A stretch of DNA of 63,370 bases, the filler included, from Hausera hauseri (taxonomy: Eukaryota), in assembly GCA_046269625.1 (NCBI GenBank). It is 12 parts of 12 records of this genome, joined end to end, with 100 filler letters (N's around TTAATTAATTAA, not from the genome) between each part and the next. Parts side by side here need not be neighbours in the genome. Positions count along the whole stretch, not along the records: positions 42,640 to 46,972 come from JBJURY010631774.1; 11 more parts are not named here. The stretch is one strand, 5' to 3'. Shown here one piece after another: positions 1-50,216 of the stretch (positions are counted from its first letter, which is position 1; each line of letters opens with the position of its first letter). The position numbers were made by a program, and so were the translations under genes. The notes beneath the pieces were generated by a model that made no database searches, had not been told where the DNA came from, and saw only the letters and a list, made by a program, of their open reading frames with translations.

Positions 1-1299
1 ATATTCTTCTATTGACTCTAATAGATATAGAAATAGATTTAGCAATTACATTCATTACTTAGGTGAACTGAAATATTTTTCTCATGATATGTCTATGGAA
101 ATATGTAACATAGGTAAATTTTAAAAGTAGAATCCACAACTTTCCATTAATATATTTCTGTTTCATGATGAGGATGATGTAGACTTCAATAAGTATATTG
201 AAAAAAAATTTATTCATTCATATTTTTTATCGAAGCAAAAATCCGAGTCATTCTGTAGTAAAAAAGGGCCAACGATTAAAGTAGAATGCAGAGACAGTTT
301 ATACACTTCACTGTAGAAATTACACCATCTCAGAATTTTACCAGGAAAGCAGGCAGTATTGATTTATTTATTGGACGTGGAAAAGTTTCATCTTTATAAC
401 CCAATACTGAAATATTATGTATCTTACTANNNNNNNNNNAGCTTACTAGGATATGATGGGACGATGTGCGGAAAATTACGTAAAATTTTTAATTCAAAAA
501 GAAATAATTACTGAAGAAAACTCGAATAGGAACTACGATTATTGCTGTACCTCTGACAATCTGGAAGATATCCATTTACCACCTACAGATTGTAAGGTTA
601 GAAAAATCTTCCTAGCAAAAGCCTTACAGAGATGTTTAGAGGCACCACAATTAACAGGATGAAACATCAGTATCTTAGTCACTTCCACCTATTAAATAAA
701 TTCAAACAACAGTAGCTGTTACAGCAATAACAGAATACTTCCTTGTTAATAATTTAATCTTGCCACCCAACTTCAACAGAGGAAATCAGTAGTATATGAT
801 ACAAATGCCATTACATAGATATAATAGAAGATTAGACCAACCAAAAGTAATAAAAGTAAATAATCCAGAGATAATTATTACAGCATGGATGAGTACAACA
901 AGATTGAGCGACGCAAAATTGAACGCTCTCGCTATCAAATATGGAGCGAATCCCGAATGGGTAATCTACGCAAGATTTGTGAATAGAATTATTGCTTATC
1001 TAGGATTGATCCACATCGATCTTATTCGAACCTAAGGAAGTTACCTGACCGATTATTTTATAGATCTACCCAAAGAAGAAATTCTTGTGACCACGATGTC
1101 CTATTCACAATATCTTACAAATATGTATAAGCAAATTATAGAAATGAGACCATCTAAAAGGAAGAAGAGCAAACATAATATCTATAACATTGACAAATAA
1201 TCCTGGTCCGATGTAGACAAAAATATAGATAGTATGAACAAGATCATCCAAAAAGTGACACATCAATGAACAATTGTAAATGATCTCGTTACTGAATCC

Positions 1300-3332
1300 G
1301 AGAGTCATATTGGTACAAGATCCACTTTGTCAAACTGCCATAACTCAAATCTACACCAGGTACTTCTGTCGTCATGCATATTAGCCTTATACATGTCCAA
1401 CCTACAAGTACAGGATACTAAAAGCTTCCGATTAATAGCAAGACTAATGTTCAATGCGGACATACTCATTCCCTTGAAATGGAGAAAATAAAACAAATAG
1501 GAAATGCAGATTTTATCGCGACTAAAATCCTAATGCTCAATGTACTACTTCCTACGGAAAGAAAGCTTGCTCAAAATCACATAGCAAATAGCTCAGTACA
1601 AGAAAAGCTTAGGATTGACAAATCATTCTTAAAAAAGGATATACCCATCGGAAAATCCAATTCAGAAGATATCTGTTTACCCATTAGTTGGCCTGCAGGA
1701 ATGCCAGGAAGAAGAAGAATGCAATTGGTAGCACAATATACCTGTACATAACTTACACCGAACCTAACCTACTTCACTATAAAAGATACAAATTAACATG
1801 TATATACAATGTATATTATACATATACCATATTCTCCGCGTAATAAATGATCAGTGAAAACCAACCACAAAAAATCAAATATAATGTGCCAGTTATCTCT
1901 TGTTGTTCTACATCACGTTCTTATCAGCTAAGAGACATCACGAATGTAACACATCAAACGAGCACTATTCCTTAAATCGTAGTATGTACATCAAAGCAAC
2001 CCGGTGAGGCGGAATACAACCTTGAATGCTCAAGCCCTACACCATCATTATTCTGTATACCAGAGGACAGATACTTCTGACAGTACAATTATTATCTTGC
2101 CATGATACATTTTGGGTAAGTATCATATGTTTCCATAAATCTAGCACATCACCCACTTGCATTTCGCAATAGTTTTCACATACCGAAACTCATCAAAACC
2201 TCTTTTGTACCATTAAATATTTCTCTTAGAGTAAAAGCTAATCTTATTCTATTAAACTATCTGGTTTCATTTGAAGATACCGTTGAGGCTTGTTTCCTAA
2301 TTACAAATCGATTCAATGAGTGCAATTAACTCCAATCAGATTATACTTACTGGTTCAAATAAAACGTTATTACCATGATCCACTTCCTAAATTAAAGACC
2401 ATAGCTCTATCCGAGACCTAGCCGCATCTCATAAGAGTACAAAACCTCATCAATCATTCCTATTTTTAAGTACATTAGCCTGTTGTATACCAAGTTCCCT
2501 GATGCAACCAACACCAAACCCTCAACAGATAATCACTACCTACTCTAAACGAGTGAACCTGACACATTTCTAGATTATGCCGAATTCCTTAAAAATAATT
2601 CTGAAACAGAGTTATGGGACATACAAGAGATTACGTCTTAAAACGGTATTCTGCAATATAACCACGAAAGTAAATGCTTATTCATAACACGCTCCACTAA
2701 AGGGAAGAAAACAGGAAATATCAGGGAGATGAAAAAAGAGTGGGAAGTATTAATAATTTATAGGAAACAAAACCAATGTGAACTTTCGTACCCATGTGCA
2801 AAGAAGAAATTTGTTGTAGAGTCACCCAAGGACTTACTTACTACTTAAAAATACAGGTATCGAAAATAATCGATGAAAAAGATCTTCCCCTTATTGAGAA
2901 TCGAACAATTGCTATATTAATACTCGCGGAAGAAAAAACCACAACAGTATCTTTAACGGAGAACTCACAAAACGAAAAGGAGCAACTCAATATCTATAGA
3001 CTATTCCTGCAAAAAGTACATTTATTGACAAACTTGATTACAAGAACCAGTGCCTGCCAGTAAGATGGAACGAAGGATGAGTGATGCATGTAATAATTAA
3101 ATATGCGGATACTTCTATTACCGGGAGTTATACCTATAACTATAAAAGAAATATCATATCATCAGATAAGGTATACTCCTTAATTTTCGCCATATTCCTT
3201 CCAGTAAACGGTAAATTGAAGCGCACTGTAAAAGGAATCAAACGGAAGGCGCCGATTATCCCTTGCACTCCTACATACATTGATAACCGAAGAATGAAAA
3301 CAAAACTACTTCACGAAGAGGAAACTTGTTAA
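1300..3332 (+). pseudogene. Two tandem degenerate copies of a retroelement accessory ectodomain (Cys/FN3-like repeats)
   Basis: Fragments align by eye with 43362-46756(-): KLRIDKSFLKK..CLPISW vs TQINRSFLEK..CLPIEW; SFEDTVEACFLITN vs TLENTNDACFLVTN; STLACCIP vs SILACCIP; YSLIFAIF vs YSLIFAMF; CCRVTQGLTY motif; stops and frameshifts. Confidence 0.75.
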
Positions 3333-3399
3333 TATTACCACAGATTGGCAATACTCAATATGCCTATCCTCAGCCACAAAACAATATTGTGAGGAATTG

Positions 3400-3770
3400 T
3401 ACGCCACTATTCAACTGGCGATCATGAGTAAATGTCACGATTTCTTTATACTCATGCTAATACAATCAGAAACACACACATACCCTATGTAAACGTAGAT
3501 ATTCTATATTACTAACTATACTACATGGCTGGCACAACCTGACAATCCTAATCTTTAGCTATGTCTATGAAAACAAGGTATTCCAAGCCATTTGCTAAAC
3601 TCAACTACGCATCACCCCACTGCACCATGCAATCTTATTTAGCCGATTCCTCGTGGTGAAAATTTTAAATTAAACATAGAAAAAATGGCACCTACCTATT
3701 CGACGCAAACTGTGCCCATGGAGATACGAAGAAACTCCTCTTATAACCGCAATTTTAACTTGAATTTAAA
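3400..3770 (+). pseudogene. Degenerate ankyrin-repeat region of retroelement accessory ORF
   Basis: TIQLAIMSKCHDFFILMLIQS and KVFQAI..LRITPLHHAI..NGTYLFDAN match 42640-43196(-). Confidence 0.75.
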
Positions 3771-3860: not shown

Positions 3861-4153
3861 CTGGGGGGTGTGCGCGTAGATAAATCGATAGTGCACTATA
3901 AATCCGTATAGTACTAGGCGACGGTGCCGCTAGGCACCGTTGCTAAGGGCATTTTTGCACATTTCACAAATCGATTGCTGCACACTGCAGTATTGATTTG
4001 ATCGATAAGGACAAAGTGCTAATTGATAGTACATATCAGTGTGCAGCGATTCGTACAAAGTGCATGTGTGCAGCAAATGTGCAAGTGTGCAAAAATCAAT
4101 AATATCAGATTTCCGATATTCCCAATATTGATTATTGGGGCACGGCACCGGGT
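3861..4153 (+). mobile_element. Possible polypurine tract and start of a 3' LTR
   Basis: GGGGGG-TG directly after the last accessory ORF; GC-richer non-coding sequence with an 11-bp hairpin (3918-3943). Confidence 0.35.
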
Positions 4154-14662: not shown

Positions 14663-15190
14663 CCAAAAGTATTGGGATGAATTTCTAGAAGGAACGCAGT
14701 TCGCGATTAATACACCTCCACATCCAGCAACAGGATTTACACCATGCTTTATGATGTATGGGCAAGAGGCAATTTTACCTGCAGATTTAGGTATGACACC
14801 GTACGAAAACAATCTCGAAGATTTAGAGCAAAACTTTGCCGAAGTCCTACAGATGAGATTACAAAAGTGTTGGAAAGTTGCGAAAACAGTATCACTTGAA
14901 TATGAGAAACAATTTAAAAAACAATATGATAAAAAGACTAAGCCTCACTATCTGGAAAAGGGAAATTGGATTTATATACATTATCCAGTAGCGAAGAAAG
15001 GTACATCTTTGAAATTAACACGTACCGGAAGAGGACCATATGAAATTACTTGTACAACACCAGCCACGGTTTATGTCAATAAAAATGGAAAAGAGGAAGT
15101 CGTATCAATCCAAAGAGTAGTTAAAACGGATATAAGGCCAGCTAAACATTACAATCTAAAACCACGAGAAAACAAGACCTTGTCATTTGT
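14663..15190 (+). CDS. Ty3/Gypsy integrase C-terminus (GPY/F region), 5'-truncated
   Basis: WDEFLEGTQFAINT..TGFTPCFMMYGQE..LP, KKQYDKK, KL...GPYEI. Confidence 0.9.
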
Positions 15191-16618
15191 CACCAGACCA
15201 GTATCTTATGTACAGATAATCGTAGCCTTATTGTTGATTGCCACCTTAACGCCTAAGTCTAACGCCCACTGGTAATTAGATAAAAATTTGTTGAGCGATA
15301 TATATGGAATCAGGAAAGCCGGATTAAAACCACCGTCACAAAAGGAGGGAACTCCCCAACATAAAACTAAACAAAAGAACAAAAAATTTTTACGAGAAAT
15401 AAAATTAAATTATTTTCGCCAGAACTCCCATGTGTCGGATTTAAGTTACCAGCACCATATGAAGGGCAAATCCAAATACTATTTCACGACCTATTAAGCC
15501 GAGCCAAGTTTGATTGCGAAATCGAACTAGAAGACGATACAGTTTGCTGCAACGTGAAGTATGGGTATTCGTACGCCCTCATCTATTGAGCATATATACT
15601 GAACTGTAATGAAGTATGCTCTGAAATTAATCTGAATTCACACCTAGTTATACCACAGACGTATAGAGACTACCTCAATATACAGTTAGAAGATATGCTC
15701 AAGTCTATCGACCCATTGAAACGTATGCCAGAAGAAAATGTAGCGAGTGTAATGGAAAATATAAAAGATAATTGTATCCAAATAAATACAAAGGGACGGT
15801 TGATTAAAGGACGAGTAATAACGGTTCAATTCCTGAGAGAAGACAAAGCAGTTTATAACCAACAATACTGTCAAATCGACACTGAAAGACCGAATAATTG
15901 TTGCAAGTTACCTTAGGGACATAAATATAGAATTCGATTGGACTTATATGAAGTGCGACCAAGCCAATCAAGTATTTTCTTAGGAAGTTATCAACTGGAA
16001 AATTAGATTTTGGGAATTCCATTTGAAACAACAACCAACAAAATTACGACTGCGAAAATGAATAAAACTATTTCAACTTCCACCAAATCCCTACAAACAA
16101 CGGGAGTACCTCAAAAGGAGCTAGAGACAATTCCCATAAAATATTGGGCACAACAGTGCGAAATAACCTTCATTGTGGAAGAAACTCTTAACTACAACGT
16201 AGAAATAAGCTGCCGAACATTATACGATAATCAGAAATTAATATTGGTTAAAGGCAGTCATCGAATAAAATGTATTGGTTTAAAACCCAAGACAGACTAC
16301 ATAATACAGATGAACGCCAAGAACAAACAAAGTAGAACGTTTACGGTACGGACGTTAAATGAGATTGTCTTAACAAAACCACTAACCAACGAGAAAACGG
16401 AGGATGGGATTACGACTACCGTTAAAACGGAAAAATCGACTAAATAGACAACGATGTCATTAATACCCATCATCGGAACATCAATATTCGCTCTCATAAT
16501 GATAATTGCGTTCTGCCGATTGATTACCAAAAACTGTTGTATTAAGCGTCACAAAATCACCGAGAGGGAACTAAAGGTGATGGTACCACAAGATGTAATC
16601 AATGATGGAATGACCTGA
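15190..16618 (+). pseudogene. Env-position type I membrane protein with Cys/FN3-like repeats
   Basis: Signal-like IIVALLLIATL, CCNVKYGYSY, CCKLPLGHKY, CIGLKPKTDYIIQM (FN3 L.P.T.Y motif), Thr-rich stalk, TM LIPIIGTSIFALIMIIAFC; stops and frameshifts. Confidence 0.7.
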
Positions 16619-16718
16619 CAACTACAGATCGGGTTATTCCACCATCAAACAAAGAATTGGTTCAAGTTTCGAACAATACTTTGTTTTAGGATTGACCCTT
16701 ATTTTGTATTTTTTCAGA

Positions 16719-17999
16719 ATGGTAAGTACGAGCAGCCGACCTAGAATCGACGAATTTTTGCAGAGATACGGAACAATTCTCATTCCAAAATGAAAAGGGC
16801 TATACCGAAGAATAAACGACGCATTACGGAAAGAAAAACTTGTCAAATACCGGAAAGTAAATGAGATACCTAACGATCTGACGGGTACCACTGAAGAAAA
16901 TCGCACAGTTTTGCTATATGCAATGCGTGATAACAATGAAGCCAGATCATATGAACTTAAAGAAATGATTAAAAGCAAAGTCACCCGAATAGAAGACATA
17001 TTCATACACCTAGCACATTGTGAAGTTTACTACAGAATAAAGAACCAGCAGTGGGATGGTAACGAAGGGCGCCAATATCGATTCAGTACGTTCAGAATTA
17101 ATGGAAAGGGTTTAGAAACTATCGACTATGGATTAGAATTTCGAGTAGCAGCATTACCTATTAAATTGATGTTCGAAGTAACCTATAGAGAGAGCTGTAA
17201 CTTAGGTTTGCCAGTTCTACAGTTCGAACAAGCCTCTACAGAAGCAGAAGTAGATGAACATTTGCAATCGTATAGATTAGTCCAAGACGGTCGCAACATA
17301 AGGATCCTGGCTACGAACTATGGTAGAGGAGACGACGGATATGGAATACCGATTGAAGTGTCAATTCGAGAAAGAGATGGGACCGAATTGTACTCAACCA
17401 TCATAAACCCTCGGATACATGTCCAGGAGTCACATGCGGAAGTGACTGGTCTAAGGAAAGATCAACTGATAAATGGAAAGGATATTCTACAAGTCCGTTC
17501 GGAGTTAGACCATTGCCTTTATGGATTCATGATAACCGGATACAATGTCAAAAGAGAAATTGGACTATTAGGGATATCCGACGCAAATATCGCCGGACTT
17601 AGGGAAATAGCCACTCATCCAGTAGTTCAAGAACGAACGGAGAAAACCGTGCAGGGAAGGAACAGAACAACCGCACCCGAAGCCTTCTTTAAAATCACCA
17701 TCGAAGCAATGAGCAAAAGCCCCAGTAAAATTCCGAGACTTTTGACAGCTATCCAGCGTTCTCAGTATTTACAAGAAATTTACATAATGCTCAAGTGGGA
17801 ACACGAAAGGGCCCCTAAAATTCCTATATACAATCTACGGAGCTCCATAAATTCTGAACGAATAGATGGTAGATATAGAAGAAACATAAAACCCTATTCC
17901 CCGATGAAAACCATTCAACCAGGAGACAAACACAGCCTCAAAATATCAGTAACAAAACCAAAACCAGAGGGCAAAACGGGATTTCAGATGATCGAATAA
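16719..17999 (+). CDS. Retroelement accessory protein with DEDDh (ISG20/REXO4-like) exonuclease fold, catalytic residues altered; one in-frame TGA at 16791
   Basis: PIEVSI...G..LYSTIINP....ESHAEVTGL....L.NG.D...V..EL...L.G..ITGYNV..E; homologous to 27926-29130. Confidence 0.75.
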
Positions 18000-18765
18000 A
18001 AAAAGAAGACACTGCAAGGAACATCAAAGTCTTCAGAAGAACGAAGAGAAGAAGAAAGGCCAGAAACAATAATTAAAAAGATGAAATTGGAAGAGAAACC
18101 CCAACCCAGAAAACAATATCCATCTACAACTATTTATTTAAAAAGCATAAGGCAGATGAAGGACAGAGGGCGGAAAGCCAGCAGAATCAACCTAGTACCT
18201 CTCAGAATACAGAACCAATTAAAAAGGGAATTAGGAGTCTCGTTATAACGGAAATCTACGCCTTAATAGGGAAAAGAAAGAAAGAGGACCCATATTTTAA
18301 AACAGATCAAGATTTTCCCAGAATGTTGGTAACTACCGAATACTACAGCAAAAAAATAATAAAGGAAGCTATGTTCTTCATTAAACTTGCTCCGGCCAGA
18401 GAGGTTTTTGAAAATACATATGTGTGGAAAAATACTAAACTTGGAACCTACCTTACGTCAATTTTTCGATCAAAAAGGAGAGGGAAAATAATAGTCCCCG
18501 TGGATAAGCAAATCCGTATATTGCTGAAGAAACAATATCAGAAATATAAAATAGAAGGGAGGATTACTGGTTTAGATAAGGACCTCTAGCGGACTGGACC
18601 CTGATTCAGGTAGATTGTGATCCACGTAAAAGTTCTATAAACCCTAAACAGAAGGTAATTCACGGATACTTATATCAAGATAAAGACGGCCTCGTGTTTG
18701 AACCTATCGAATTGATTATTCAAGTCGATTTGGATAGAGAATATTGAGGCAGGGAAGATAGTGAA

Positions 18766-19137
18766 TGTCCCGTATGTGAAGCAAACTTGAGACAAGGTTA
18801 CGTAATTTTGGAGAACAGAAATTGCCGTCATAAATACTGCCGAGATTGTCTAGAAAAGTGGACACTCAACAGTGGGAAAACGACGTGCCCAGTATTCCTG
18901 GCTGAAGCCACGGAATTAAAATACTACTCAGATGGAAGTTATACACGAGTTGTTAGAATTAAACCTTACCACAGCTATAACTTGGAAACGAACCCAGTGC
19001 CATATCGACACCCAAAGAGCTCACCAACCGATCTGCCCGAAAGAATGGAAAGATTAAGACGACCGGAAAAATCGTGCGCCATCTCTTCTGACGCAATGGG
19101 CTCATCCGAGGATGCCGCTCAGGGAGGAGAAATGTAG
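18766..19137 (+). pseudogene. C3HC4 RING-finger ORF remnant
   Basis: CPVC-x15-CRHKYCRDC-x12-CPV(F); last ligand mutated and in-frame stop upstream at 18745. Confidence 0.8.
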
Positions 19138-19847
19138 AAATAGTGATCGTGTGGAAACATTAAATTTTAGAAATAAACAGCTGGTAGAAATTGCGTGGAA
19201 AATATGATCAATATTGTGTGATAGTTGGCAATAATCGTGAGTATTCCGCTTTGTAAATAGTAATTATACAGAAATTATGATTGATATTGTGTGATAGTTG
19301 ACTTTGTAAATAATAAAGAATTGTCGGATATTGTAATAAATCGATTGACATCTGGTCATATTGTATTTTGAGCTGGACCTATGGCTATATAAACAAGTAG
19401 TAGAGAAGACAGAAACAGAACAATTTTTGCGACTTAGGCTCGCAGTAAAACGTGATCAATTCAGTGCTAACATTGACGATATTCTATTCATATTACTGAC
19501 TCTTCTATTCATTATTCAAGTTGTGTTTGTACGTGGTATCAATAAAAGGTGATTATTTATTTTTACGTGTTCTAAAATTCATAGATTTCCATCGTCTCTT
19601 AAAGACGATTTGTACTCCACTAAGGTTAACTTATCACTTAAAATCACATAATTAAGACGATATTTTCTTAAACTTGAGGCAAGCATTTAACGCACGCAGT
19701 ACCCGCAATTAGCTCAAATTTTTCTAAATTATTAAGGCACAAGCAAATTACTGGAGAACGAGTAATCGTAACCTGCTGATTCAGCGATTAAAACTTGGAA
19801 TAATATTGTTATAGTGAGAGAAGGTAAGGGCCACCCCAACTGTAACA
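19121..19847 (+). mobile_element. PPT (19121-19132) and 3' LTR (about 19133-19847)
   Basis: AGGGAGGAGAAA then TGT...ACA; TATATAAA at 19386, AATAAA at 19541; 3' end matches the LTR end at 58769-58811(-). Confidence 0.8.
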
Positions 19848-20884
19848 TATTTATTGTCTGATTTTATTATTATACGACCTGCTTCACAAAATTTACAACC
19901 TGAATTATTTGAAGACATTTTTATTGTATGTTTTTATAATTGAAGTGTTGAGAGTACTTGTAAAAGGACTGGACAGGAGTATTTTTTCAAATTTTTAAAA
20001 ATTGTCATAAGTGAGCCTGGTGGGGGGCGAACGAATGAAAATTCTTTCTAAAATTTGAGGGGCCGGCCTATTCCAATCCTTTTACAACTACTACCAAATA
20101 ATAAAGTACAAGACGGTGATTCTTTCATTCTTTTATTTATTTGAATGTTTTTTTATTTTCATAATTTGTTTATCACTTTTTTGCTCATATAAAAGATACC
20201 CTTATACTTAAATGACCTTAAACTTAAATTGCCTTATGTGACTGTGGTTAAGGAATAAATTCCCGTTCACCAAATTTGGGGATAAGGAATAAGTACCAAT
20301 TCCAATTCACCCAATCATCAAATTGGCTTTTGTTTTAACGCAACAATTTAATTAAATGGGTGGGGGTGGGAATTTTGCCAGATAGACCATTTTCCACTAC
20401 TTGTTCGACATAGAAACAATACAGAAACAAATTTACCACTTTTTTACTTATCTCAATCTGACTCGAAATTATGTACAAATCGTGTGCCATTGAACAAAAA
20501 TATCTTGAAACATCTTGACACAGAACTTGAAAATTTTTTGAAGAAGTCGAAAGTGGTACATTGTCTCAAACTTACATGATGCATCAATGACCGGAAAACA
20601 CTAATCGATGGATTCTCCATGATCATCATGTGACGAACATTATGATCATCTCGCATGACTATTTAATATTTAAAAGACAGTGAAAAAGATTTTTAATTTT
20701 TAAGTTTAAATTTTCTATCAAGTGCTAAAATTTACACAACTTTTTAAATAATCACAATTAACGTCGTGACAAACTTTCAGTCAATTTGAATTGTCTCGGT
20801 TTGTGGTGTTCCTTGTAAAATATTACAGACGGAATATAAATATAAAAATAGCGATTTAATATATTAAGAATAACTGTTCACAAA

Positions 20885-27925: not shown

Positions 27926-29130
27926 TTAACTCCATAGATCGAAAGAGGGAGATTTGTATCGAAGGCCATCAGGAACATAGATTTCGCCATCCACCAATAT
28001 TTCCTCTTCTATTTCGATCCTTCTTCTTTTCAACGATGGTTCCTTTGGTCTTATTAAGACCCTGTCGGAGGCCGTTGTATCGTCTATAATTTCGTCGTTC
28101 CATCGTAGTGTTTTATACAAGGCATGGTAACATTGTACCAATGCCATACTGCGGAGTGGCATTCCTTTCATTTCATAAAATTTCTTGGCCAACTCCTTAT
28201 AAGTCTTCGTTTCCAATTTATACGTCCGAATTATGTACTCGTGATACAATACATCACGCACACCCATAATTCGACGTAATGGACAGAGGAGATGTTTTCG
28301 TAACATCTTCAGGACTCCGGCTCCAACCACTATTTTGTCATTGAGGACGGCTGATATCTTCTGGTAGAATGCATTAGCATCCATCTGATTATTAATGTTA
28401 CTTTTGATAAGCCCGGTAATATGCGAGTCAAAATTGTTGATTCTTTGTCGAGGAGTGATCATCGTATAAAATAGGGTATCTCCTTGTAGATTTACCACTG
28501 AACATTCTATGGGCGTCAACTGGTTGTTCTGGTCATAGGCTAGATTGACTGCGGCTATCACAATGTCTTCATCGGAAATTCGTGACACCCGTCGATATGG
28601 TTTATCTACATACTTTAAGTAGTCGGGTTCTGTCAGATTAAAGCATTTTCCTTGGGGAGGTGTTGTCCATATTGGTTCGGCCTTTATTAATTCCACTCCA
28701 ATCATAATTCGACTGGTTAAGGTTCGAATTTTAAGAGTGTTTCTTTTTATTATCTCGAATGGGAGTGTCATTCCGTGGTTTGGGTCCAAGTTGATTAGGT
28801 CTCCTTGTTGGTTTTTTTTAGTATCTTTAAGCTTGAACTGAAACTTGCCGACGATATCGTACACACTGATACTGTGAAATTTGTCTGGGAAGCTGATAAG
28901 ATCTTGTAAAGGGAACGACATGGCCTTTGAGATGTGGACCACTGCCAACGATCGATTCCCATCGCATACCCCTTGAGATTGTTGGGTATCTGTTGAACTT
29001 GTGGATAATTAAGGCTGTAGATATTTTCATTAACTCTGACGTGGTACTGATTGGAAGAATCAGCATTTATAAGGTGGTTTCTGGCGTTTTCGTAGAAGTT
29101 TTTACTTCGTTGTATAGCTTGAACGTCCAT
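27926..29130 (-). CDS. Retroelement accessory protein with degenerate DEDDh exonuclease fold (frameshift near 28960)
   Basis: PIECSVVNLQGDTLFYTMITP...NFDSHITGL...KISAVLNDKIVVG; N-terminal YPQVQQIPNNLKG matches YRKVNEIPNDLTG of 16719-17999. Confidence 0.75.
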
Positions 29131-29298
29131 CACTGTAACAATTAACGTTAATCTTAAATATAAAACAACGGTTATCATATATTTTTGTTTGGTAATCGTT
29201 GTTATTTTAAATTCTTTATTCGTTTTAATGGTAACTGAGTGATATTCAGTTATCCTAATTTTTAGGATTGCGTCGACAACAATCCAGAGAAGCCATCG

Positions 29299-30280
29299 TC
29301 AGCTTGGATTATCGGTATCCAAGATATTTGGTATACGTCGCATGTCTATTCGAACCCAGTTTGGTGTGCGACGTTTACTCATACAAATAATCATTTTTAT
29401 TACAAGGACTAGCAGTATTAAGAAAATTATGGGGCATACTGTACTTATTATTATTAGTTCTATTCGGCAATATGCATAATGTGACTTCAGTAATGGTACA
29501 GTTCTACTCGTGCTTGTACTTATTTTATTTTCTACTAGTTGTATTTTAGTTGCTGTTAATAATTTAGTAGAGACTATCGCGTTATTATCACTATATAGTT
29601 GTAATATAACCATATATTTAGTATTTGGACTCAGATCGGCACATGGCACTATATTATCGTCTGGTGTGATTATACCTTTGGCTACAATCTTTGACCCTAA
29701 CTTACAGGTAAGTTTAATTTTATAAAAGTTTAGATCGGGTTGGATAGCTATAACTAAAGAGGTGGACGTGGAAGATATTGTGGCCTTTTCTAAGATAGAG
29801 CGTTTGTAACGATAAGGTAAAGCCTGGGGTCGAATGAGAACAGTCATCTCTCCAACTTTCATTTTTGTTTTGTTAAATAGTGGAGATTTCGCAAGAGGTG
29901 TCGTGACAGTTAATTGCTGGTCGTCGTCATGTTCAATGACATTTTTGAATGGAACATATGTTCTGGGACCTGGATGAATTAGAGTCTTTACATTCTCTGA
30001 ATCTTTTCGTACTAACTTAAATTGTATATCATAAGTTTTTCCTCGTATGACATTACAGCAGGCTCGGAGAAGCTCGTGGTTCAGTTGGCATTTTGTGGGT
30101 AGCCTTTGTTTCTTTTGAACGTCCATAAGTCTTATACCTATTGCTCTGTCTTCTTCCAACTCTATCATTGTTCTAATTTCAATACAACTTCGTCCGTTTT
30201 TAAATCCTATCGGCTTAACCGTAAGTTGGGTTAGAATTATTTCGTCTAGTTTAGTCGCATTCATTGCCCGTCTAGTAGGA
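29299..30280 (-). CDS. Env-position type I membrane protein with Cys/FN3-like repeats (5'-truncated)
   Basis: CCNVIRGKTYDIQF, RYKR furin-like site, CADLSPNTKYMVIL (FN3-like), TM LIIISTVCPIIFLILLVLVI, short basic tail. Confidence 0.75.
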
Positions 30281-31480: not shown

Positions 31481-31494
31481 GTTGTTGTTGTTGG

Positions 31495-36035: not shown

Positions 36036-36037
36036 AG

Positions 36038-36400
36038 TGTCGTATTATGGGTTTTTGCAAACCAATCACAGCTGACAACACTAACAGTAAACTACTACCA
36101 TGCGCAATTGTCATTGACCAAATTCAATCAATAACGGTAACGACCCAGTTAGACTGCTCATCAATCAATTTGTACAAATTAGCAATGGCCACTGAATGTA
36201 CGTATGAACCCGAACTGTTTCCTGCACTGAGACTGACATCGTTTTGCCCACTTTATTTCAATGTGTTTAGCCGTTGAAAAATTTTTGTACTCGGTATTCG
36301 AACAATGGACTATGAACCGATTATTAATCAAATTAAAAACCACATATGTTTTAGTGAATCAAAATATTTACTCTGCACAACAAACTATAAATACCATTCC
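36038..36400 (+). pseudogene. TATA-binding-protein-like gene fragment within the Polinton
   Basis: CRIMG...IQSITVT...INLYKLA...YEPELFPALRL...FNVFS(R*)KIFVLG resembles TBP repeat 2 (YEPELFPGL...IF.SGKV.LTG). Confidence 0.7.
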
Positions 36401-41700: not shown

Positions 41701-42018
41701 GTTCAGTATCGGGAATGGATATTCCTACGACCAAAGTACTACAGTCTTCTGACGGACTGTGGACCAAAAATGCGGGAAAAGGGAGTCCAGCTGAGACAGA
41801 CGGAAATCGACCACGGTGATTATTGCCTTATATATGAACAAGCAGCAGCAGCAGCAGCAGCAGAAGGAGATGTTGTGTCTCAAAGAATCATCCGATCAAT
41901 TGAGCACCAGCTGTACACAATAACTAGTGCGAAAGTCGCTTTGTCATGTAACAATGGTAAGCGAAAGTGGGCGGGGCGAAATAAGAGTTGGGCATATGGA
42001 CATTGGCGGCTGAAATAA
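38757..42018 (+). pseudogene. Second Polinton pPolB (type with EndoVII/HNH insert)
   Basis: CPVC..H..C zinc finger, VVYVDIE, CYLC..DHDHFTG..CNSCN, FHNFRGYD, GIRGG, YIDINN, K.KN.SLYGK, YIGQVVLDLSK..MY, GDTVS, RPKYYS; frameshifted. Confidence 0.9.
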
Positions 42019-42639: not shown

Positions 42640-43361
42640 CCATAAGTTCGAGTCAAAAGCGCAGTTACAAGGAGAGTCTCCTCATATGAACCATGAGTGT
42701 AGTTTACGTCAAATAAGTAAGTTCCGTTATCGAATTTCTTATTCAGAAAGGTTTCCAATAAGAGAAATCGTTTGAATATTATTACGTGGTGTAATGGTGT
42801 ACTGCGTAATTGTAATTGGAAGATTGCTTGAAACACCTTATTATCCTAGGCATAATAGAATATTAAAATTGCGAGATTATGTCGACCATGTCGTATAGCA
42901 AGTAATAAGGGGATATCTCCGTCGACATTGGGTATATGTAACGGTGCTTGCGATTGAATGATCATAAGTATGAAAAAGTCATGGCATTCGCTCATAATAG
43001 TTAATTGGATGATAGTGTTACCATTCATATCGTGGAATTTTAGCGCTTCCGATGCTTCATCGACTAATTGAGTTATATCTTCTCTGGCTATTTCCTCGTT
43101 TCCTAGTGCTACTGATAGCATTAATGGAGTCGTTCCGGCGTTATTGATCGTCGTATATTCTATTGGATTTGCTGGTTCATCAATGCATCCCAGCATATAA
43201 CGTTCCGCTTTGGGTAGGATTTGTTCTTCATGGGTTTCGACGTAAGGGTAGTATTCTTCTTCCTTAATAATTGATAACCATTTTTCGTCACCATAAATTT
43301 TAAAATCATATTCTAATTTGGTCAGAAGAATTTCTAATGGTCTGGTGTAACCAAGTGTTGG
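42640..43361 (-). pseudogene. Ankyrin-repeat domain, cytoplasmic part of the accessory polyprotein
   Basis: NNAGTTPLMLSVALGNEEIA, DMNGNTII, NVDGDIPLLLAIRHGRHNLA, STPLHH. Confidence 0.8.
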
Positions 43362-45050
43362 TCAATGACGGAATATGTTTCTCCTCTCGTGTTTACGTTT
43401 ATATACACATATAGCGATGATTGTTGCTATAACAAGTATAATACCAATGGGTAACACTATTACTATTAGCAGGAGTATATTATAATTTGACTGAAGTCGT
43501 TGAAATGGTTCGCCTGATGGTAATATGACGTTAAATGTGTCATTATCTTTAGTGGAGTCCGTAGATATTCTAAATATAAATTTTCCTCTTTTCATTATTT
43601 CGTTGAGTGTAGGAAATTTAAATAATGAATTTACTCCCTTTCTAAGTGTAGTGACTTCTAATAAAGCAACCGTTTTTGGTTTTCGTAATGAATCATAGTA
43701 AAGTAACTGAATATGGGCTAGATAAGGGTAACCTGATATAAACTGAGCACACTCAACATATGTGTTGGTAACTAGAAAACAGGCGTCATTTGTATTTTCT
43801 AATGTAACGATAAAGTCAGGATTTGGTAAACTGAATATTATACGATCATATCTCACTTGTATATAAATGTCTAATAGTTTGAAAGGAATAATCTAAATTC
43901 GTTCTGTGGTTTGTCTTAATCCTGCTATTAGGTAAGGGATTTGATTATGAACCGATTAATGAAAACTGCTTAGCCAAAAGGCGTTTGGAGATGATGATTG
44001 CAATTGCAGTGTAAAAAGTATCTGCCGATTATCGTGTTTCGTACATAATATTAGAGGTCGAGGGATTGTGACCTCTAGAGTATAAACTTCGTCAATATAT
44101 CATTTCGCGGCACATGATAGGGCGTAACTGACTTTACTGATTTGAGGTTCTACCACTAAAACTCAATTTTCATTAAATATCTTTGCTCCGATTCGCTTAT
44201 TATCTTCAGTTGAAGGGGTACATAAAATCATTGATGCTTTTCTTTCTATTCCGGTTATTGTACATCATTATATACCATTTACGACGCGAAACATAGCAAA
44301 TATTAATGAATATTCTTGATCAGGTCGTGCGAATATGCAAGTCGATTGATTATGTTCTCTGGAATAGTAAATATTATTATGTCTGATGGTTGTATCAGCA
44401 TATCGCGTGGTTATTTGCATTATTCTACCTTTTGGAATTTTCCTATCCCATTCGATTGGTAAGCATTTTCTTTTGTAATCGGGTTGCCTTATAAATATTC
44501 TTTTTTCTAAAAATGATCTATTAATCTGCGTTTTCTCTTTCTGTTTGGGCGAATTATCTGTCAGAGATAACGTAACTGTTTTTGGTCTTAACGCTACCAT
44601 AACTTGGGTATTAGACTTCCGTAGAGGAGTGAAGTCTTATTTTTAAACATATGTATCTGCACTGAATAAACAGTTCCAGGCATAACCTTACAACAATTTT
44701 CCTTGTGTGTGGATGTAGACGTATATATCATTTTTTACTTCCCTATAGCGTGTTAGCGTATCCCAATTTTCGTTTATAGTTTTATTATTGTTTATCGCAA
44801 TTCGTGGAGTAAAGGATTTCAACAATAAGTTTTTTCTTGTATGATTATATTGGATGTAGAGATCTCGTGGGGTAGTTCCTTGAATATACCATGGTTCTAT
44901 TTTTGGAATTCTTTTTAAATATTTCATAAAGTCTGAAAATGTATTCGATGATGTCTGGTTAAGTGGATTTGTTGTTTTCTGTGGACTTGCGGCTAGCCGT
45001 GTAGATGAATCTGGTATGCAACAAGCTAATATGCTCATTGGTAGTAACAT
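43362..45050 (-). pseudogene. Accessory membrane module 2 (signal-like segment, Cys/FN3-like ectodomain, TM)
   Basis: MLLPMSILACC, CCKVMPGTVY, YALSCAAK..LC...QILF, TM ILLLIVIVLPIGIILVIATIIAICVY-KRK. Confidence 0.7.
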
Positions 45051-46756
45051 TCAATGAGGTTTTATATCATGTTTGATTTGTAGTGGATGGGTTTTAACAA
45101 GTTTTTTAATTTGTTGTCGGCGTTTAGCATATAGTAATACTGCCAACACTGATATGGAAATGAGGATGACGACGGGTGCGATAATTATTAGTAACAGATA
45201 TTCATCCTCGTATATTGTTGTCATAGTGGATGTTCGGTTCTTCACCAATATCTTATTTTCGTCAACTATTGCTTGTGGTTTCATATGGACGTTTTGTCGT
45301 TTGCCAGAAGTGGTTATATGACAGTGCTATTATCATTTGTTGGTGTATTATCTGTACTATAAAGACATTGGGGTTTGAAATTGTCACAACTGATAGTCGT
45401 ATCCGTAAATAATAAACATTAAACTGTATCATCGTCGAATGATATCATATAATTTTATTAGAGAAGTTAAATACGGAATTTTTATCATTCACTTGATAGG
45501 AAATATTTAAAGGAGTAAATTGAACCATCTAAATATGCTTAGGAAGACGTAGACCGTCATATGATGCGTGTAATGGTGAACTGAGAGCGTTAAAAAAGTT
45601 GTACTTATCCAAAATATATTAGTACAGGGGGATGATAGTTGTAAGGCAATAGTATTTGTTTTTCATTACCTGGTGCACAAAGTCCTGATGGTTCTACATT
45701 AGAATATTCTATTTTATAATCCTCATCATTTCTTAGTTTTGCTGCGCAGGTTATAACGTACGACATATTTTCGGTTTTAGGTATAATTCTTATAATTCCT
45801 TTAGAGTTGTCTACATCTGCATTTATTGGTGAGTCATATTCCGGTATTGGACGGCATTGGTTATTAGCTAATTCATTGTTGTTTTGCTTACTTAAATTTC
45901 CTGCTTTGGATTTTATTGGTTCGATGGTTGTTATTTCCACGGGTATGGTAACAAAGATGGTCCGTCGCAAGGTGATATTATAACCAAATCCTTTTGTTCC
46001 AATGGTAATTTGTGATACTTGAAAGGTTAGGGAATAGATGCGTCCTTGAGCAACCAAACAGCATTTATTTTTCATTAATTCTGAATGTGTAACGCAGATA
46101 GGTCTGTTTACCTAGAACAGTGTCACTGCTTACCATTCTTGTCCTTTCGGTTTACTTACACATGTTATCATCAAACATTTCTTTTCGGTGCTATAATAAT
46201 TAGAGGAAACCTTAAATCTAAGTCATTGATTATCTTTAAATTCGAATCTTGTGTTTTCCGGTAATTTAGCATAATCTCGAAATATAGCACGTAATTCTCG
46301 TCTTTGGGTAAAAGTTGAGATCAGGATTTGAGCCACTTGAGATGCTGGAGTTAATTGCGTCGAGACATTCGTCATAGATTGGGCCAGTATACATAAGAAT
46401 AAAATTGTTGTACTAAACTTTGATTGTATGCTTTGGCCTTTATGGTTTACTGAATCACTTTCGGTATTTTGTTGGTTATCCAATCCAGAAGAACTTTTAT
46501 CTGAGATAAATTTCTCATTTGATGTAAGACTCATATTTTGTTGGTCATTTGATTCTATAGCGTTTTTATCTCCAATGAGCTGATTGTTTACTGTAGAATT
46601 AGCGTCATCCGATTCAGCTGGATGTGTGTCGGTAATGGGTTCCGTTTCTTCATTTGTGTAGGTAAAGCTTTTAGTGGCAATAGGTTCTTCTCCTTCTAAT
46701 ATTGGATCCAACTTAGATTCGTTTTTCGATGTAGGATTTGGGATGAGTTGATGCAA
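45051..46756 (-). pseudogene. Accessory membrane module 1 (linker, signal-like segment, Cys/FN3-like ectodomain, TM)
   Basis: TILFLCILA, CCLVAQGRIY, YVITCAAK..LC...QILL, TM LLLIIIAPVVILISISVLAVLLY-AKRR. Confidence 0.7.
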
Positions 46757-47072
46757 TTTTTTAATATTCTCCTACATTTTGGTTTAAATTTCTTTATCTC
46801 TGGTAGATCTTCGGAATTTATTTTTCTTCTTTTTCAAGTAATGTTTTGTATTAATTATGTGTATATATTTCTGTCAAATATTCCTGATAAGTCACTTTTG
46901 TTACTTGAATTCTTTCTTGTGGCAATTTTACTAAATATTCTACCAAGTAGTCTCTTTCTTTTTGTAATAAATNNNNNNNNNNNNNNNNNNNNNNNNNNNN
47001 NNNNNNNNNNNNNNNNTTAATTAATTAANNNNNNNNNNNNNNNNNNNNNNNNNNNNNNNNNNNNNNNNNNNN

Positions 47073-49777
47073 AACAACGTCAAAATCAACGAAGCATGCT
47101 GACGCAACACCAAATACGCTTTACCGCACAATTCCATAAACATCTGGAACCTTTCACTGGCCAACGGTTTTTTACAGCCATCGGCAACGACGACGATAAA
47201 GTCCTCCGTCAACACAAACTGCACCTGTTCCCGATTGATACCCAATTTCCATTTGACGTTATTCAGAATGTGTCCAAAGTCAATATGGAATAATTGACCT
47301 TGTTTGTTGACCATAATATTATCCGGATATCGATCACGAATACCCAACACAAATGTCGCCACTGAATAACCGGCGCAACTCCGCGTGAACGTATAGATAG
47401 CCTTCTGTTGGAGTTCCAATGTATTGTTATGATTTTGGATACATTTGTAAAGTGACATGTTGTTGATTTGTATTGTTGATGACAAATACGTTTTCTGAAT
47501 AGACATAACCGTTTTAGCATCTTTCACTGCCTCAATAACGCCGGTATCTTTCCCCGTTGCCAGACAACCGTACGGTAACAATTTCATATCCTGGAATTGA
47601 CGTTTCCAAATGTAATCGAAAATCGCAAACAACTGCAACGTCAACATGTCCTGTCGTAGATCGTCACCGTGTTTGAAAATGTATTTTGGATTCGTTTCAC
47701 CGAATTCATCCGTACTGCTCCATTCCAGAAAAAACGGTCGTTTCTTCGATTTCTTCACGTCGCATCTGTCGACAATCAACGAACCCAGTTTTTCAATCGG
47801 CCGCAACAAACAGTAAATGTTCTCACACAATTTTCTCGACTCATTCGTCCGGAGATTTTCCTTGAGAAAGTGCAACTGTTTATCGTCGGGATATTTCTTG
47901 ATATGTTTGTTCAAATCCACCAGATTCTCAATGGCTCGACATTGCGGCAACAGAATCGTTTGGAAATTCCAATATCCCCGACATAATGATTCCAACAAAA
48001 TCCCGAAATAAATCTTCACCGAATCGTTGTCCATTTCCGATTTCAAATACCAAAATAATTTCTGTTCGATGGATTTGTTGCGCAGTGCGTATCGCAACAG
48101 AAACGTGGCCAAATCGTTACAGAAATACGACTCGTATTTCAGTGCTTGAATCAACTGTAACAAATAAATACTGAGATNNNNNNNNNNNNNNNNNNNNNNN
48201 NNNNNNNNNNNNNNNNNNNNNNNNNNNNNNNNNNNNNNNNNNNNNNNNNNNNNNNNNNNNNNNNNNNNNNNNNNNNNAAACGTGGCCAAATCGTTACAGA
48301 AATACGACTCGTATTTCAGTGCTTGAATCAACTGTAACAAATAAATACTGAGATCGGATTCGGCGAATATATTGCCGAAATTTTTCACGGAAAAATTCCG
48401 CAGTTTACCGTCGAAATAATTCCCGCTCAACAATTGAAACGACGATTCCAGACTGATTTGCGACCAGTTTACGAGAAGCGAATAGAACAACGACACTTCC
48501 GAACGGTTTATCCAGCGAATTGAGCGAGCTAATCGCGGTAAACTGTCGGGCACAAAACGGCATAGTTCTCTATTCGTACGAAGAAAATCCAAATTCTGTT
48601 CGGATATTTCCGATAAGAATTCTTTACTGACGATCTGTTTGATTTTTAATAGAATCGGATCGGTCGGATTGGATTCTTTTAGAACGACGTGCGTCGGTTC
48701 GTCGTAAGACTTATTTCGTAAATTGCTAAATTCCACCGACAGAATGGCATTGGTCAGATTGCTGAACGAATGCGGTAATCCGCACGGATAGAAATAACTG
48801 CTATCCGTCGTCCGATACAGATTCAAATCAAACAATCCGTGCACCAAACAGCTGCAATAATCGAACACATTCATATTTGCCCAGCCCAGAACGATTTCAT
48901 TGCCTTGTCGATCACTTTTCTGCACGAGTGCTACGCAGAATCGAGAATTTCTCGACAGATTGTTGTACTCAATGTCGAACGTCAATTTCGCATTCCAGAC
49001 AGGACGATCAGCTGCAACCGATTCGGTTTTAACGTCCGTTCCCAACATGCAAGTCATTCCGCAGAACAATGCAGCACGAACGTACACTTTGGCAATATCT
49101 TTACTGATTAACTGGGCGCATTTGACAATGAACGAGAAACAATTCTGATTATCGATTTTGTGTTTTCGACTAACTTCCGGTACATTTCGATAGAAATACT
49201 GCGGAAACGAAAATGCATTGACACTGAAGTTTATTAGCTTTTCGAATGGATACAGACTCAATACAGGCATTTCATCGTTGTAAAGACAGGCTTGAACGTA
49301 ATCGTAATGAATGAGACTATTCTCATGATTTATTAAATAACTATCATACGACGAAACTTTGAGAACGTACAATCGTGAACGCAATTCCGCGTCTGTTTGA
49401 TTGTCCACTTTGTACTCTCGACATCTTAACAAAATTGTAACGATAACTTCGCCCACCTTCGAATTTTTTGGCAAACACAGTTGTTTCTTAACAACACTCG
49501 AACGCGTGTTGTACATTGTTAAAATACGCAAACTATCCATTTCTTGTAGAATTTGCCGTGTCGATAACGTAATCAACTCGTTGTAATCCGCAGAATATTG
49601 GAGCATGACGATGTTACCTTTATCACACGTTAAATTTTCGTATTCCTCTTTGGCAATTTGCAAATAATATTTCCGTGCAAACAACAATTCCGAAGACCAT
49701 AATTCATTGGTGTTATTTTTCTGACACCAGTTTCGTGTTATTAGGTTAAACACAAATGCACGATTAAACGAATCCAT
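47073..49777 (-). CDS. Class I phosphoinositide 3-kinase catalytic subunit (p110-like), C-terminus truncated, internal gap
   Basis: RBD-like, C2 (PVWN..L.FDI....L.R.SR), helical (YLLQLIQALKYE, LFWYLKSE) and kinase (SKKRP, FKHGDDLRQDMLTLQ, PYGCLATG, SCAGYSVATFVLGI.DR, FHIDFGH) domains. Confidence 0.93.
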
Positions 49778-50216
49778 AACAGTATAATCCAAAAGAAATA
49801 TCTCGCTGAAACAGATTATCTTTATTTTCAAGTTTCAAAAAAAACCATTGAATCATTAAATCAATATTATGCTACCATGAAACATATTTCTATATACACA
49901 TGTCTTTATATTTATATATACAAAATCACGCAGATTAACACACAATGAGTATCGAATTTTAAAACGATCATACCAAAACAAACACAAAATAAAAAAAACG
50001 CCAAACGATTGTCGAAATAAGTGTTACACATAAACAGAGAGAATGAAATACAACGTAGATACAGTTAACAAGATCAACGTAGACTAATTTAAAATAAAAA
50101 TGAGATAAAATGAGCAAAGGAGAGAGATGAGATTTATTAACAAACGTTCTGGCTAGCGTCTAATGTTTTGAACGTACGAGACGATGTTATTGATGGGTCT
50201 ATTTACTGACAATTAT

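Follow-up and report, generated by a model that had tools for sequence, protein, structure and literature searches.

A decayed receptor-like cassette with ankyrin repeats in Hausera hauseri, probably derived from a large Ty3/Gypsy-like LTR retrotransposon

Results

Coding capacity and decay of the contig

The window analysed here is a stretch of 63,370 nucleotides (filler included) that joins 12 parts of the Hausera hauseri genome assembly GCA_046269625.1. The contig at 42640..46972 carries the remains of a long coding region on its minus strand (Table 1). Its limits are mere contig ends, flanked by N/TTAATTAATTAA/N linkers, and the frame continues past both. The best coding path, whose frames were assigned via homology, contains 18 stop codons and seven frame changes in 1,435 codons, where about 103 stops would be expected by chance. 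The copy is thus far more decayed than in the first-pass annotation, which had described open reading frame pieces that just abut over single stops. The two stops named there (45051-45053 and 43362-43364) are both present, each with the same frame on either side. Elsewhere, the window contains Polinton-like pieces and a YTH ORF that is about 70% identical to diverse animal proteins; no tRNA genes were found.

Table 1. Coordinates of the cassette, its second copy and the related cassettes in the window.
Position	Strand	Feature	Details
42640..46972	-	Whole unplaced contig	4,333 bp; decayed member of a high-copy repeat; coding path runs off either end
46860..46970	-	Conserved upstream coding segment	Matches copy 2 at ~1030-1180: phmmer E 1.5e-5; 0/1000 shuffles reach score
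46421..46771	-	Linker	Stop-free, Cys-free, S/N/D/E-rich (translation)
46373..46420	-	First signal-like segment	Weak, internal; below hydropathy threshold; copy 2 match weak (4/1000 shuffles reach score)
45200..46372	-	Ectodomain 1	~390 aa, 11 Cys, 7 N-glycosylation sequons
45131..45199	-	TM1	19-residue hydropathy peak 3.13 at 45194
45051..45130	-	Short basic loop ending in stop 45051-45053	26 aa, 8 K/R vs 1 D/E; copy 2 has no stop where it aligns
45009..45050	-	Second signal-like hydrophobic segment	11-residue peak 2.43; 69% identity to copy 2 over 16 codons
43482..45008	-	Ectodomain 2	~510 aa, 10 Cys, 7 sequons; two Cys-Cys modules, then modules C and D
44235..44528	-	Module predicted as fibronectin type III (FN3) beta-sandwich	AF2 pLDDT ~70
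43410..43481	-	TM2, then basic stop-transfer stretch	19-residue hydropathy peak 3.31 at 43472
43362..43364	-	Stop separating TM2 from the cytoplasmic tail	Frame unchanged across it
42680..43145	-	~4-5 degenerate ankyrin repeats	Pfam and PDB similarity; most conserved part of cassette
440..3765	+	Second copy, diverged and internally deleted, different subfamily	Homology to 42640..46972; synonymous sites saturated
3863..3870	+	PPT-like G6 run then TG, candidate 3' LTR start	~100 nt past ankyrin homology of copy 2
14664..19850	+	Related cassette in Gypsy-type element	Integrase C-terminus, in-frame signal, two Cys-Cys modules, FN3, TM, DEDDh-like exonuclease, RING, PPT, LTR
27926..30279	-	Third related cassette	Cys-Cys module, FN3, TM, DEDDh-like exonuclease

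A contig survey of one run, possibly the source sample, with longest listed pieces below 400 nt, returned 7,001 contigs matching this region, which identifies it as a high-copy repeat and places it in a dispersed multicopy family, as for Ty3/Gypsy elements. Most matches (5,614) are less than 95% alike, the identity classes being 351 contigs at 99% or more, 1,036 at 95-99%, 2,639 at 90-95% and 2,975 below 90%. Three of the 40 majority differences listed fall in stop codons of the present copy, 37 of the 40 lie at codon positions 1 or 2 of the path, and indel variants occur among the surveyed contigs at six of the seven frame changes. Comparison with the second copy, on the contig at 1-4153 (copy 2), yielded pS 0.80 and pN 0.28, with identities of 0.65, 0.74 and 0.44 at the three codon positions (356 codons). 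The cassette was formerly a long coding frame under purifying selection.

In the alignment, copy 2 reads through at the position of the first stop, as the first-pass annotation had stated, and has no Met at this break either; in the present copy, an ATG directly follows the stop. The proposal of one ancestral frame is supported by this alignment, by the majority differences in stop codons and by the indel variants at frame changes. The region of the second stop is missing from copy 2 and is not among the contig-survey rows listed. Copy 2 lacks TM1 as well as the stretch from mid-ectodomain 2 through TM2, and therefore confirms neither the topology nor the second stop. It has at least 1.2 kb of coding sequence upstream of signal 1, unlike the neighbouring cassette at 14664..19850, and this upstream domain had no match to anything searched. 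G6+TG motifs of the kind seen at its end were found twice in the window (0.43 expected), the other one downstream of a Gypsy-type integrase; the motif is short, and what follows it in copy 2 did not match other LTRs in the window. On neither contig of the family did Pfam scans of the three sense frames detect gag, RT or integrase.

Membrane topology and ankyrin tail

The architecture predicted earlier, two ectodomain-TM modules followed by ankyrin repeats, is real and comprises a hydrophobic segment, ectodomain 1, TM1, a basic loop, a second hydrophobic segment, ectodomain 2, TM2 and degenerate ankyrins. TM1 and TM2 are the sole segments over the 19-residue hydropathy threshold in the three minus frames, and a basic stretch lies behind each. 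A signal had been assigned to each ectodomain: at the second, a hydrophobic segment with a peak weaker than those of the TMs lies behind the first stop, whereas the first stays below threshold and is internal, since 180 or more codons of coding sequence lie ahead of it. The two signal-like segments are both short. Conservation of the segment at 46860..46970 in copy 2 places the start of the polyprotein further 5'.

Ectodomain 1 consists of a Cys-Cys module (~45960-46190) followed by modules C and D, with four frame changes between ~45600 and ~45320, and ectodomain 2 contains a frame excursion at ~44626-44737. The two ectodomains are paralogous (BLASTP E 2e-7). Neither has an RX[KR]R furin site in this decayed copy.

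Ankyrin similarity behind the second TM, also noted previously, is genuine though degenerate. The Pfam Ank_2 match (E 1.9e-5, 25.5 bits) does not reach the curated cut-off of 27.3, and 22 PDB ankyrin sequences match the tail at E<=0.01 (best 1.9e-6). Between the two copies, the tail has 66-81% amino acid identity and a pN of 0.08-0.18. A word-index protein search, which covers longer proteins only, yielded 3 of 270 candidates for the ankyrin ORF, all generic ankyrin proteins at 27-34%. The nearest ankyrins are generic repeats (NompC, DARPins), with Notch1 ankyrins among the weak matches (E 0.012); a kinship specific to IkB or Notch is unsupported.

Fold of the ectodomain modules

At least one module of the cassette has an FN3 fold according to structure modelling. 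The AF2 model of 44235..44528 matched 5n48_B with Z 9.9 (rmsd 2.4 A, 90 residues), and a family-only model gave Z 9.4, with Z 9.2 (rmsd 2.5 A over 92 residues) against 4gh7_B, so that the fold was obtained with and without alignment rows from neighbouring families. Alignments A4 and A5, visibly misaligned, were left out. About 100 of the ~900 ectodomain residues were modelled confidently, and those ~100 match FN3; modules C and D had pLDDT <50. No match to modules C and D was found in a PDB profile search, in which the Cys-Cys module hit JAK2 alone at a chance level (E 0.56). An open ORF of ectodomain 1 had no usable match in the ESM Atlas, and a viral fold library gave no match at E<=0.001. 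For the modelled part of ~100 residues, no F or gB protein was among the fold matches listed. Since the ectodomains are paralogous and one module is predicted to adopt the FN3 fold, their look would be that of a receptor, not of an F- or gB-type envelope.

Related cassettes and database searches

Two related cassettes lie in the window. The one at 14664..19850 starts with an integrase C-terminus that matches a PR-RT-RH-IN record at E 7e-8; this record was the sole match, the domain being missed by Pfam, PDB and local alignments. An LTR-PBS-gag contig is 75% alike to the end of its LTR, and the gag of this neighbour was seen by motif alone (zf-CCHC E 0.097; nothing in PDB). In a profile search with the Cys-Cys modules of the neighbours, the top three non-training matches all belonged to the 42640..46972 family, at 9.3, 7.1 and 5.5 bits, whereas 20 shuffled sets reached 4.0 at most; the reverse profile gave 8.6 and 7.8 bits (best shuffled 5.9). 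Direct comparison with hhalign gave E 5e-5 and a probability of 67%. Homology across the families is modest and confined to the Cys-Cys module; profile and hhalign comparison revealed no link between module D and the FN3 of the neighbours. Cargo shared with an element that carries integrase, PPT and LTR supports the Ty3/Gypsy assignment without defining it.

The tails differ: the 42640..46972 family has ankyrins, the two neighbours a DEDDh-like exonuclease, joined by RING in the one at 14664..19850. In these neighbours, a second hydrophobic segment behind the TM is followed by the exonuclease-like domain. In a word-index search of longer proteins, none of 1,796 candidates was retained for the neighbour ectodomain. 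By features, it resembles the FNDC9, IL11RA and FNDC5 clusters (0.90-0.91), a likeness that is weak given a recognition value of 1996, below the guide value of 2300.

Searches for relatives of the cassette were negative. When 715 residues, running from TM1 up to the edge of the ankyrins, were compared by phmmer with 1.84 billion representatives, a library that may or may not include Burro proteins, no match was obtained at E<=0.001. Of the pattern matches in viral contigs, 0/63 and 0/35 were confirmed; one metagenome search returned no pattern match and another confirmed 0/145. Mostly open literature, covered at the level of main texts, where a TM annotation of Burro in supplements may be missed, yielded no report of LTR elements with FN3-TM-ankyrin cargo.

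These data bear on two alternative origins. The contig could stem from another class of mobile element or from an endogenised virus (a large DNA virus, a Polinton-like element or a giant RNA virus) with host-like FN3 and ankyrin modules. It contains no pol, Polinton-like pieces are present in the window, and the nidovirus PSCNV has ankyrin and FN2 domains in one polyprotein, according to the available parts of PMC6211748. We nevertheless regard this origin as quite unlikely in view of the module homology to an integrase-, PPT- and LTR-linked cassette, the PPT-like motif in copy 2, the thousands of diverged pieces, and the failure to find a relative in viral contigs or a viral fold match at E<=0.001. 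The other alternative is a pseudogene with no tie to transposition, from a host receptor family that has expanded (cytokine-receptor-like, or Notch-like with ankyrins), which would share the FN3-plus-TM layout of host receptors and agree with the weak likeness of the neighbour ectodomain to FNDC9, IL11RA and FNDC5 and with the weak Notch1 match. It is highly improbable: the 4.3 kb path needs no introns, the ectodomain-TM units are in tandem with internal signals, EGF and LNR matches are absent, no relative was found among the 1.84 billion proteins, and the diverged pieces are very numerous.

Discussion

We favour, with a probability of roughly 0.6, the reading that the contig preserves, in a dead copy, the 3' accessory region of a large animal Ty3/Gypsy-like LTR retrotransposon encoding a receptor-like polyprotein. 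By analogy with the neighbour whose signal lies in frame behind the integrase, the cassette would form the end of one long polyprotein, just before PPT and 3' LTR. Signal 1 would open translocation and TM1 would stop it; the basic loop would stay cytosolic, after which signal 2 would reopen translocation and TM2 would stop it. Cutting of the precursor by signal peptidase would free two type I membrane proteins, namely an FN3-ectodomain protein with a 26-residue tail and a second product with a cytosolic ankyrin domain. Rather than serving as a fusogen, both may have mimicked host FN3 receptors in adhesion or ligand binding, and the ankyrins would bind a host signalling protein. The receptor-like product with cytoplasmic ankyrins suggested by the first-pass annotation is supported, whereas the likeness it saw to viral glycoprotein precursors extends to topology and not beyond.

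The same cargo might instead be an uncut polytopic protein with uncleaved anchors, or two units expressed separately by splicing or internal initiation. This alternative would suit the ATG right behind the first stop, the ORF3s of rotifer LTR elements, which are typically separate spliced units in the available parts of PMC5408684, and the second hydrophobic segment of the neighbours, which precedes an exonuclease-like domain that poorly fits a lumenal location. Against this, copy 2 retains the hydrophobic segment behind the first break with 69% identity and lacks both stop and Met at the break itself, the first signal of the neighbour is in frame with the integrase, and the paralogy of the two ectodomains requires re-translocation. 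We consider such an arrangement rather unlikely.

Burro elements, giant Gypsy-like LTR retrotransposons of planarians, are described in the available parts of PMC6431247 as having an F-type env between gag and protease and AIR1, Smc, MATH, BIR, BCL2 and SUMO motifs. The resemblance to Burro drawn earlier holds only for a giant Gypsy-like element with ankyrins: both have a very long polyprotein, host-like accessory domains including ankyrin repeats, and many decayed copies (same source), and ankyrin repeats in a giant polyprotein are found at 42640..46972. Pfam scans of both copies in their three sense frames, which cover 4-5 kb of the element, detected neither the F-type env nor any of the six motifs. 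The available Burro description (PMC6431247) includes no FN3 ectodomains, whereas two FN3-type ectodomain-TM units precede the ankyrins here, apparently at the 3' end. Membership in Burro, beyond common ankyrins, is unsupported.

The F-type and HSV gB-type env of errantiviruses share the signal-ectodomain-TM layout within Ty3/Gypsy elements (available parts of PMC13524379, in whose main text the words ankyrin and fibronectin are absent). The present cassette differs in the FN3 fold of the modelled module, the lack of a furin site, the duplicated units and the ankyrin tail. The furin site RX[KR]R is conserved in F-type env and not always in the gB type, and a class I or class III fusogen fold would be expected of such env proteins. 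We see very little chance that the contig is a Burro segment, despite the giant polyprotein with ankyrins (PMC6431247), or a true fusogenic errantivirus env diverged past recognition, despite the common layout: the modelled module is predicted to be FN3, RX[KR]R is absent from both ectodomains, no Burro motif was found in Pfam scans of the fragment, and env lies between gag and protease in Burro, whereas this cassette appears 3'-terminal.

Rotifer LTR elements carry extra 3' ORFs with TM or DEDD exonuclease; as in the non-env accessory ORF3s of bdelloid Vesta and Juno, the neighbours here have a DEDDh-like domain. The TM ORF3s of these elements are 210-230 aa long and typically separate units, with no FN3 or ankyrin noted in the available parts of the source, unlike the >1,400 codons found here (PMC5408684). 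The planarian secretory cell nidovirus, likened by description alone, is a mobile polyprotein with host-like extracellular modules and ankyrins; it is an RNA virus with FN2 instead of FN3, and its ANK and FN2 domains have been proposed to mimic host signalling (available parts of PMC6211748).

Among host proteins, FN3 receptors (cytokine receptor family, DCC/Neogenin, Tie2) share the FN3 fold and single-pass units. Class I cytokine receptors have a WSXWS motif in the membrane-proximal FN3, which was not seen when the translations of this decayed copy were read by eye. In Notch, a TM is followed by ankyrins and the ectodomain is made of EGF and LNR. The cytosolic ankyrins lie ~90 residues behind the TM here, roughly the Notch spacing, but the cassette has no EGF or LNR Pfam match, an FN3 fold instead, and tandem units in one frame.

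More broadly, and at somewhat less than even odds, we propose that giant Gypsy-like elements have radiated in this genome, their polyproteins finishing in receptor mimics that consist of an FN3 ectodomain and a TM and carry interchangeable tails. Alongside F and gB env, such mimics would form a third kind of retrotransposon surface protein, produced via internal signal peptides, that binds host ligands or cells and modulates host signalling. So far, F- or gB-type fusogens and short TM ORFs have been described as surface proteins of Ty3/Gypsy elements. The value of the present finding is limited by the decay of the copy and the absence of a direct pol link. If related versions of a conserved FN3-TM-ankyrin cassette, with different tails, do occur in three or more element families of the same genome, retrotransposons would, in the manner of large DNA viruses, maintain receptor-like proteins for host interaction by selection, and non-fusogenic receptor mimics as a route of signalling or spread by invertebrate LTR elements would become testable.

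Decay state and copy number of the cassette

The cassette under study, a decayed coding region for two ectodomain-TM units and ankyrins, occupies exactly one whole contig with a GC content of 34%. The window contigs (12, unplaced) are separated by N-TTAATTAATTAA-N linkers, and the remaining ones are mobile DNA for the most part. The host is an animal, judging by a YTH ORF on one of these contigs that shares about 70% identity with proteins of diverse animals. The coding path of the cassette, with frames set by homology, comprises 1,435 codons with 18 stops and 7 frame changes, compared with about 103 stops expected by chance. The first-pass annotation had placed two single stops within one frame; both exist, with an identical frame on either side of each, but the degree of decay it had assumed was too low. 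The coding sequence runs off the contig end upstream and is extended by at least 1.2 kb in copy 2, a second, diverged copy of the family at 1-4153. At the site proposed for the first signal a signal-like segment is found, although it is weak and internal, with coding continuing upstream.

The stretch is present in one public run, which may be its source sample. In this run, 7,001 contigs align to the cassette, 5,614 of them with less than 95% identity. The best-supported 40 of 1,212 differences fall at 21 first, 16 second and 3 third codon positions of the inferred path, a pattern in line with drift in this copy and agreement among the others at constrained sites. Three of these 40 lie in stops (44102, 44165 and 45421), where ~98-99% of the depth carries another reading; the two stops noted initially are absent among them. 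Small indel variants occur at six of the seven frame changes (12 of the 15 indels listed).

Identity between the cassette and copy 2 was 0.65/0.74/0.44 per codon position over 356 codons. pS was 0.80 and pN 0.28, with the ankyrins most conserved (pN 0.08-0.18); because local protein alignment selected these segments, pN is biased towards low values. At the aligned place of the first break, copy 2 carries neither a stop nor Met, in agreement with the read-through claimed previously. Copy 2 lacks TM1 and the stretch from mid-ectodomain 2 through TM2, so that we can only infer that the second stop, between TM2 and the ankyrins, is a decay mutation. The cassette is a decayed member of a formerly selected repeat family, a real but dead feature. 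In the same run, several contigs skip stretches over TM2 (43286-43579) and one skips TM1 (45139-45224); together with the TM-less copy 2, this reflects either TM regions that diverge fastest or recurrent TM-less derivatives.

Coordinates of features in the window
Feature	Position	Strand	Remarks
Cassette	42640-46972	-
Frame changes	near 46860, 45600, 45455, 45358, 45320, 44738, 44625	-	homology-placed frames
TM1	about 45131-45199	-	hydropathy, strong; basic residues follow
TM2	about 43410-43481	-	hydropathy, strong; basic residues follow
Neighbour cassette	14664-19850	+	Gypsy-type 3' end
Second neighbour cassette	27926-30279 (contig 26165-30280)	-	stop-free 326-aa ectodomain-TM ORF (Cys-Cys module and FN3), further hydrophobic segments, DEDDh-like exonuclease
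LTR/gag-like contig	54559-58880	-	LTR end; a PBS-like TGGCGACC (58764) precedes a gag-like frame that has a single zinc knuckle
Long coding region	58981-63370	-	decayed; no Pfam match in three frames; may be another piece of a giant element
Class I PI3K catalytic subunit frame	47075-49834	-	intronless; RBD, C2, PIK, kinase; 77-nt duplication spans assembly gap; either retrocopy or captured gene
YTH-domain ORF	8465-9445	+	intronless; ~70% to animal YTHDF/diverse animal proteins over domain
265-nt repeat	5772-6032 and 50869-51128		69% alike; common to YTH and PI3K contigs
AAA-ATPase-like ORFs (PF09820)	9594-14562	-	tandem pair with a spacing of ~3.9 kb; the two match at 81% across about 1 kb
Polinton/adintovirus-like remnants	22123-26064, 30381-36831, 41302-42018		including integrase (rve E 1.7e-4)

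Membrane segments, ectodomains and ankyrin tail

The two TM segments described initially were recovered by hydropathy, and a weaker hydrophobic segment lies just behind the first stop. The loop between TM1 and this putative second signal contains 8 K/R vs 1 D/E. The ankyrin assignment of the tail was likewise borne out (Ank_2 E 1.9e-5, short of the curated Pfam cut-off; 22 PDB ankyrin sequences at E<=0.01), and the repeats were not particularly close to either IkB or Notch. An IkB-like role has been proposed for nidovirus ankyrins (PMC6211748).

The two ectodomains are paralogues of each other (E 2e-7), and each is Cys-rich with seven sequons. Using an eight-row alignment, AlphaFold2 predicted a seven-stranded sandwich at 44528-44235 (pLDDT about 70; remainder <50) that matches fibronectin type III (Z 9.9, rmsd 2.4 A over 90 residues). 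Its top Foldseek matches were the IL-3 receptor beta chain (E 7e-4) and fibronectin (E 1e-3). Because the alignment included rows of neighbouring families, the domain was refolded with five own-family rows only; the fold was recovered again (Z 9.2-9.4), with a mean pLDDT of 50.8 in the best of five models and <=35 in three. The Z values are slightly above the 7-8 that the tool deems common, and nearly all of the 50 matches listed were FN3 domains; the predicted fold is generic and points to no particular donor or ligand. Module D looks FN3-like by eye only. A host receptor pseudogene, with which the receptor match might be reconciled, is highly improbable for a member of this repeat family.

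Links to LTR retrotransposons

The tie of the cassette to LTR retrotransposons is indirect. A profile of the neighbours' three Cys-Cys modules, chosen by eye ahead of testing, returned modules of the cassette's family as its first three non-training matches, at 9.3, 7.1 and 5.5 bits, whereas 20 shuffled sets reached at most 4.0 and a reversed control 4.9. With the roles exchanged, the neighbours came out on top (8.6 and 7.8 bits; best shuffled 5.9), and profile-profile alignment gave E 5e-5 at a probability of 67%. Module D showed no link to the neighbours by either method. In copy 2, a G6 run followed by TG (3863-3870) lies ~100 nt beyond the ankyrin homology; two such motifs were seen in the window vs 0.43 expected, the second (8056) behind a Gypsy-type integrase. 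The YTH ORF starts ~400 nt behind the latter motif, itself after the integrase remnant at 6850-7420. Speaking against a tie to LTR elements, a Pfam scan showed no pol on either contig of the family, and the upstream domain of copy 2 gave no match. An origin in another virus or mobile class, compatible with this absence of pol, is quite unlikely given these module matches; no relatives were found in viral contigs or metagenomes, nor among 1.84 billion protein representatives, where eukaryotic transposon ORFs are probably under-represented. The Polinton/adintovirus-like remnants contain what we take, by eye, to be B-family polymerase-like, packaging-ATPase-like and capsid-like frames.

The first neighbour is less decayed and directly tied to LTR anatomy, and is perhaps the better target. 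Its contig (14663-22022) opens on an integrase C-terminus that matches, at E 7e-8, the part behind PR-RT-RH in NZ_CP087956.1. This is followed in frame by a signal, two Cys-Cys modules and FN3 (Pfam fn3 E 0.07, Pur_ac_phosph_N E 0.004), then by a TM and another hydrophobic segment, and lastly by a DEDDh-like domain and a RING finger (E 7e-7). Downstream lie a purine tract (PPT at about 19121-19132) and an LTR of ~715 bp; at its end, this LTR shows a 75% match to the start of another contig, 54559-58880. After its gag-like frame, the latter continues with >2.5 kb of largely helical-looking coding sequence, in which no protease or RT was seen, suggesting part of a very long element. In the second neighbour, the ectodomain-TM lies near FNDC9, IL11RA and FNDC5 by Atlas features (0.90-0.91; weak by the tool's guide), and the DEDDh-like domain matches ISG20L2 (E 0.034) and the first neighbour's domain at 17250-17625 (E 0.003). 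NZ_CP087956.1 808-4300, filed as a Wolbachia plasmid, shows the Gypsy arrangement of protease, RT, RNase H and integrase and is probably a host retrotransposon circle.

Comparison with known elements and proposed mechanism

The comparison with Burro made initially holds for a giant Gypsy element with host-like cargo and ankyrins. As described in PMC6431247, Burro differs in an F-type env between gag and protease and in further motifs that did not turn up in Pfam scans of the cassette and copy 2. Membership in Burro is unsupported and, like a true env, very unlikely; neither ectodomain contains an RX[KR]R site. Errantivirus env genes are of F or gB type (PMC13524379) and rotifer LTR elements carry short ORF3s with TM or DEDD (PMC5408684). 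No published report of FN3-TM-ankyrin cargo was found in the incomplete literature covered.

Most likely (probability roughly 0.6), the region formed the end of one long element polyprotein threaded into the ER twice, in the putative order signal 1, ectodomain 1, TM1, basic loop, signal 2, ectodomain 2, TM2 and cytosolic ankyrins. The loop charge fits such threading, and the topology is suggested by hydropathy and paralogy. Signal-peptidase cleavage would yield a short-tailed FN3 membrane protein and another with an ankyrin tail. Units left uncleaved would share these segments, and separately expressed ones would face a first break without Met in copy 2; either arrangement is unlikely. By analogy, the cleaved products might be displayed at the surface and act there in adhesion or as receptor mimics, with a tail that binds signalling proteins. 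The cassette is probably accessory cargo of a giant Ty3/Gypsy-like element, and this cargo is probably receptor-like, not fusogenic. Tentatively, at somewhat less than even odds, it may belong to an LTR-element family that carries FN3 receptor mimics with exchangeable tails.
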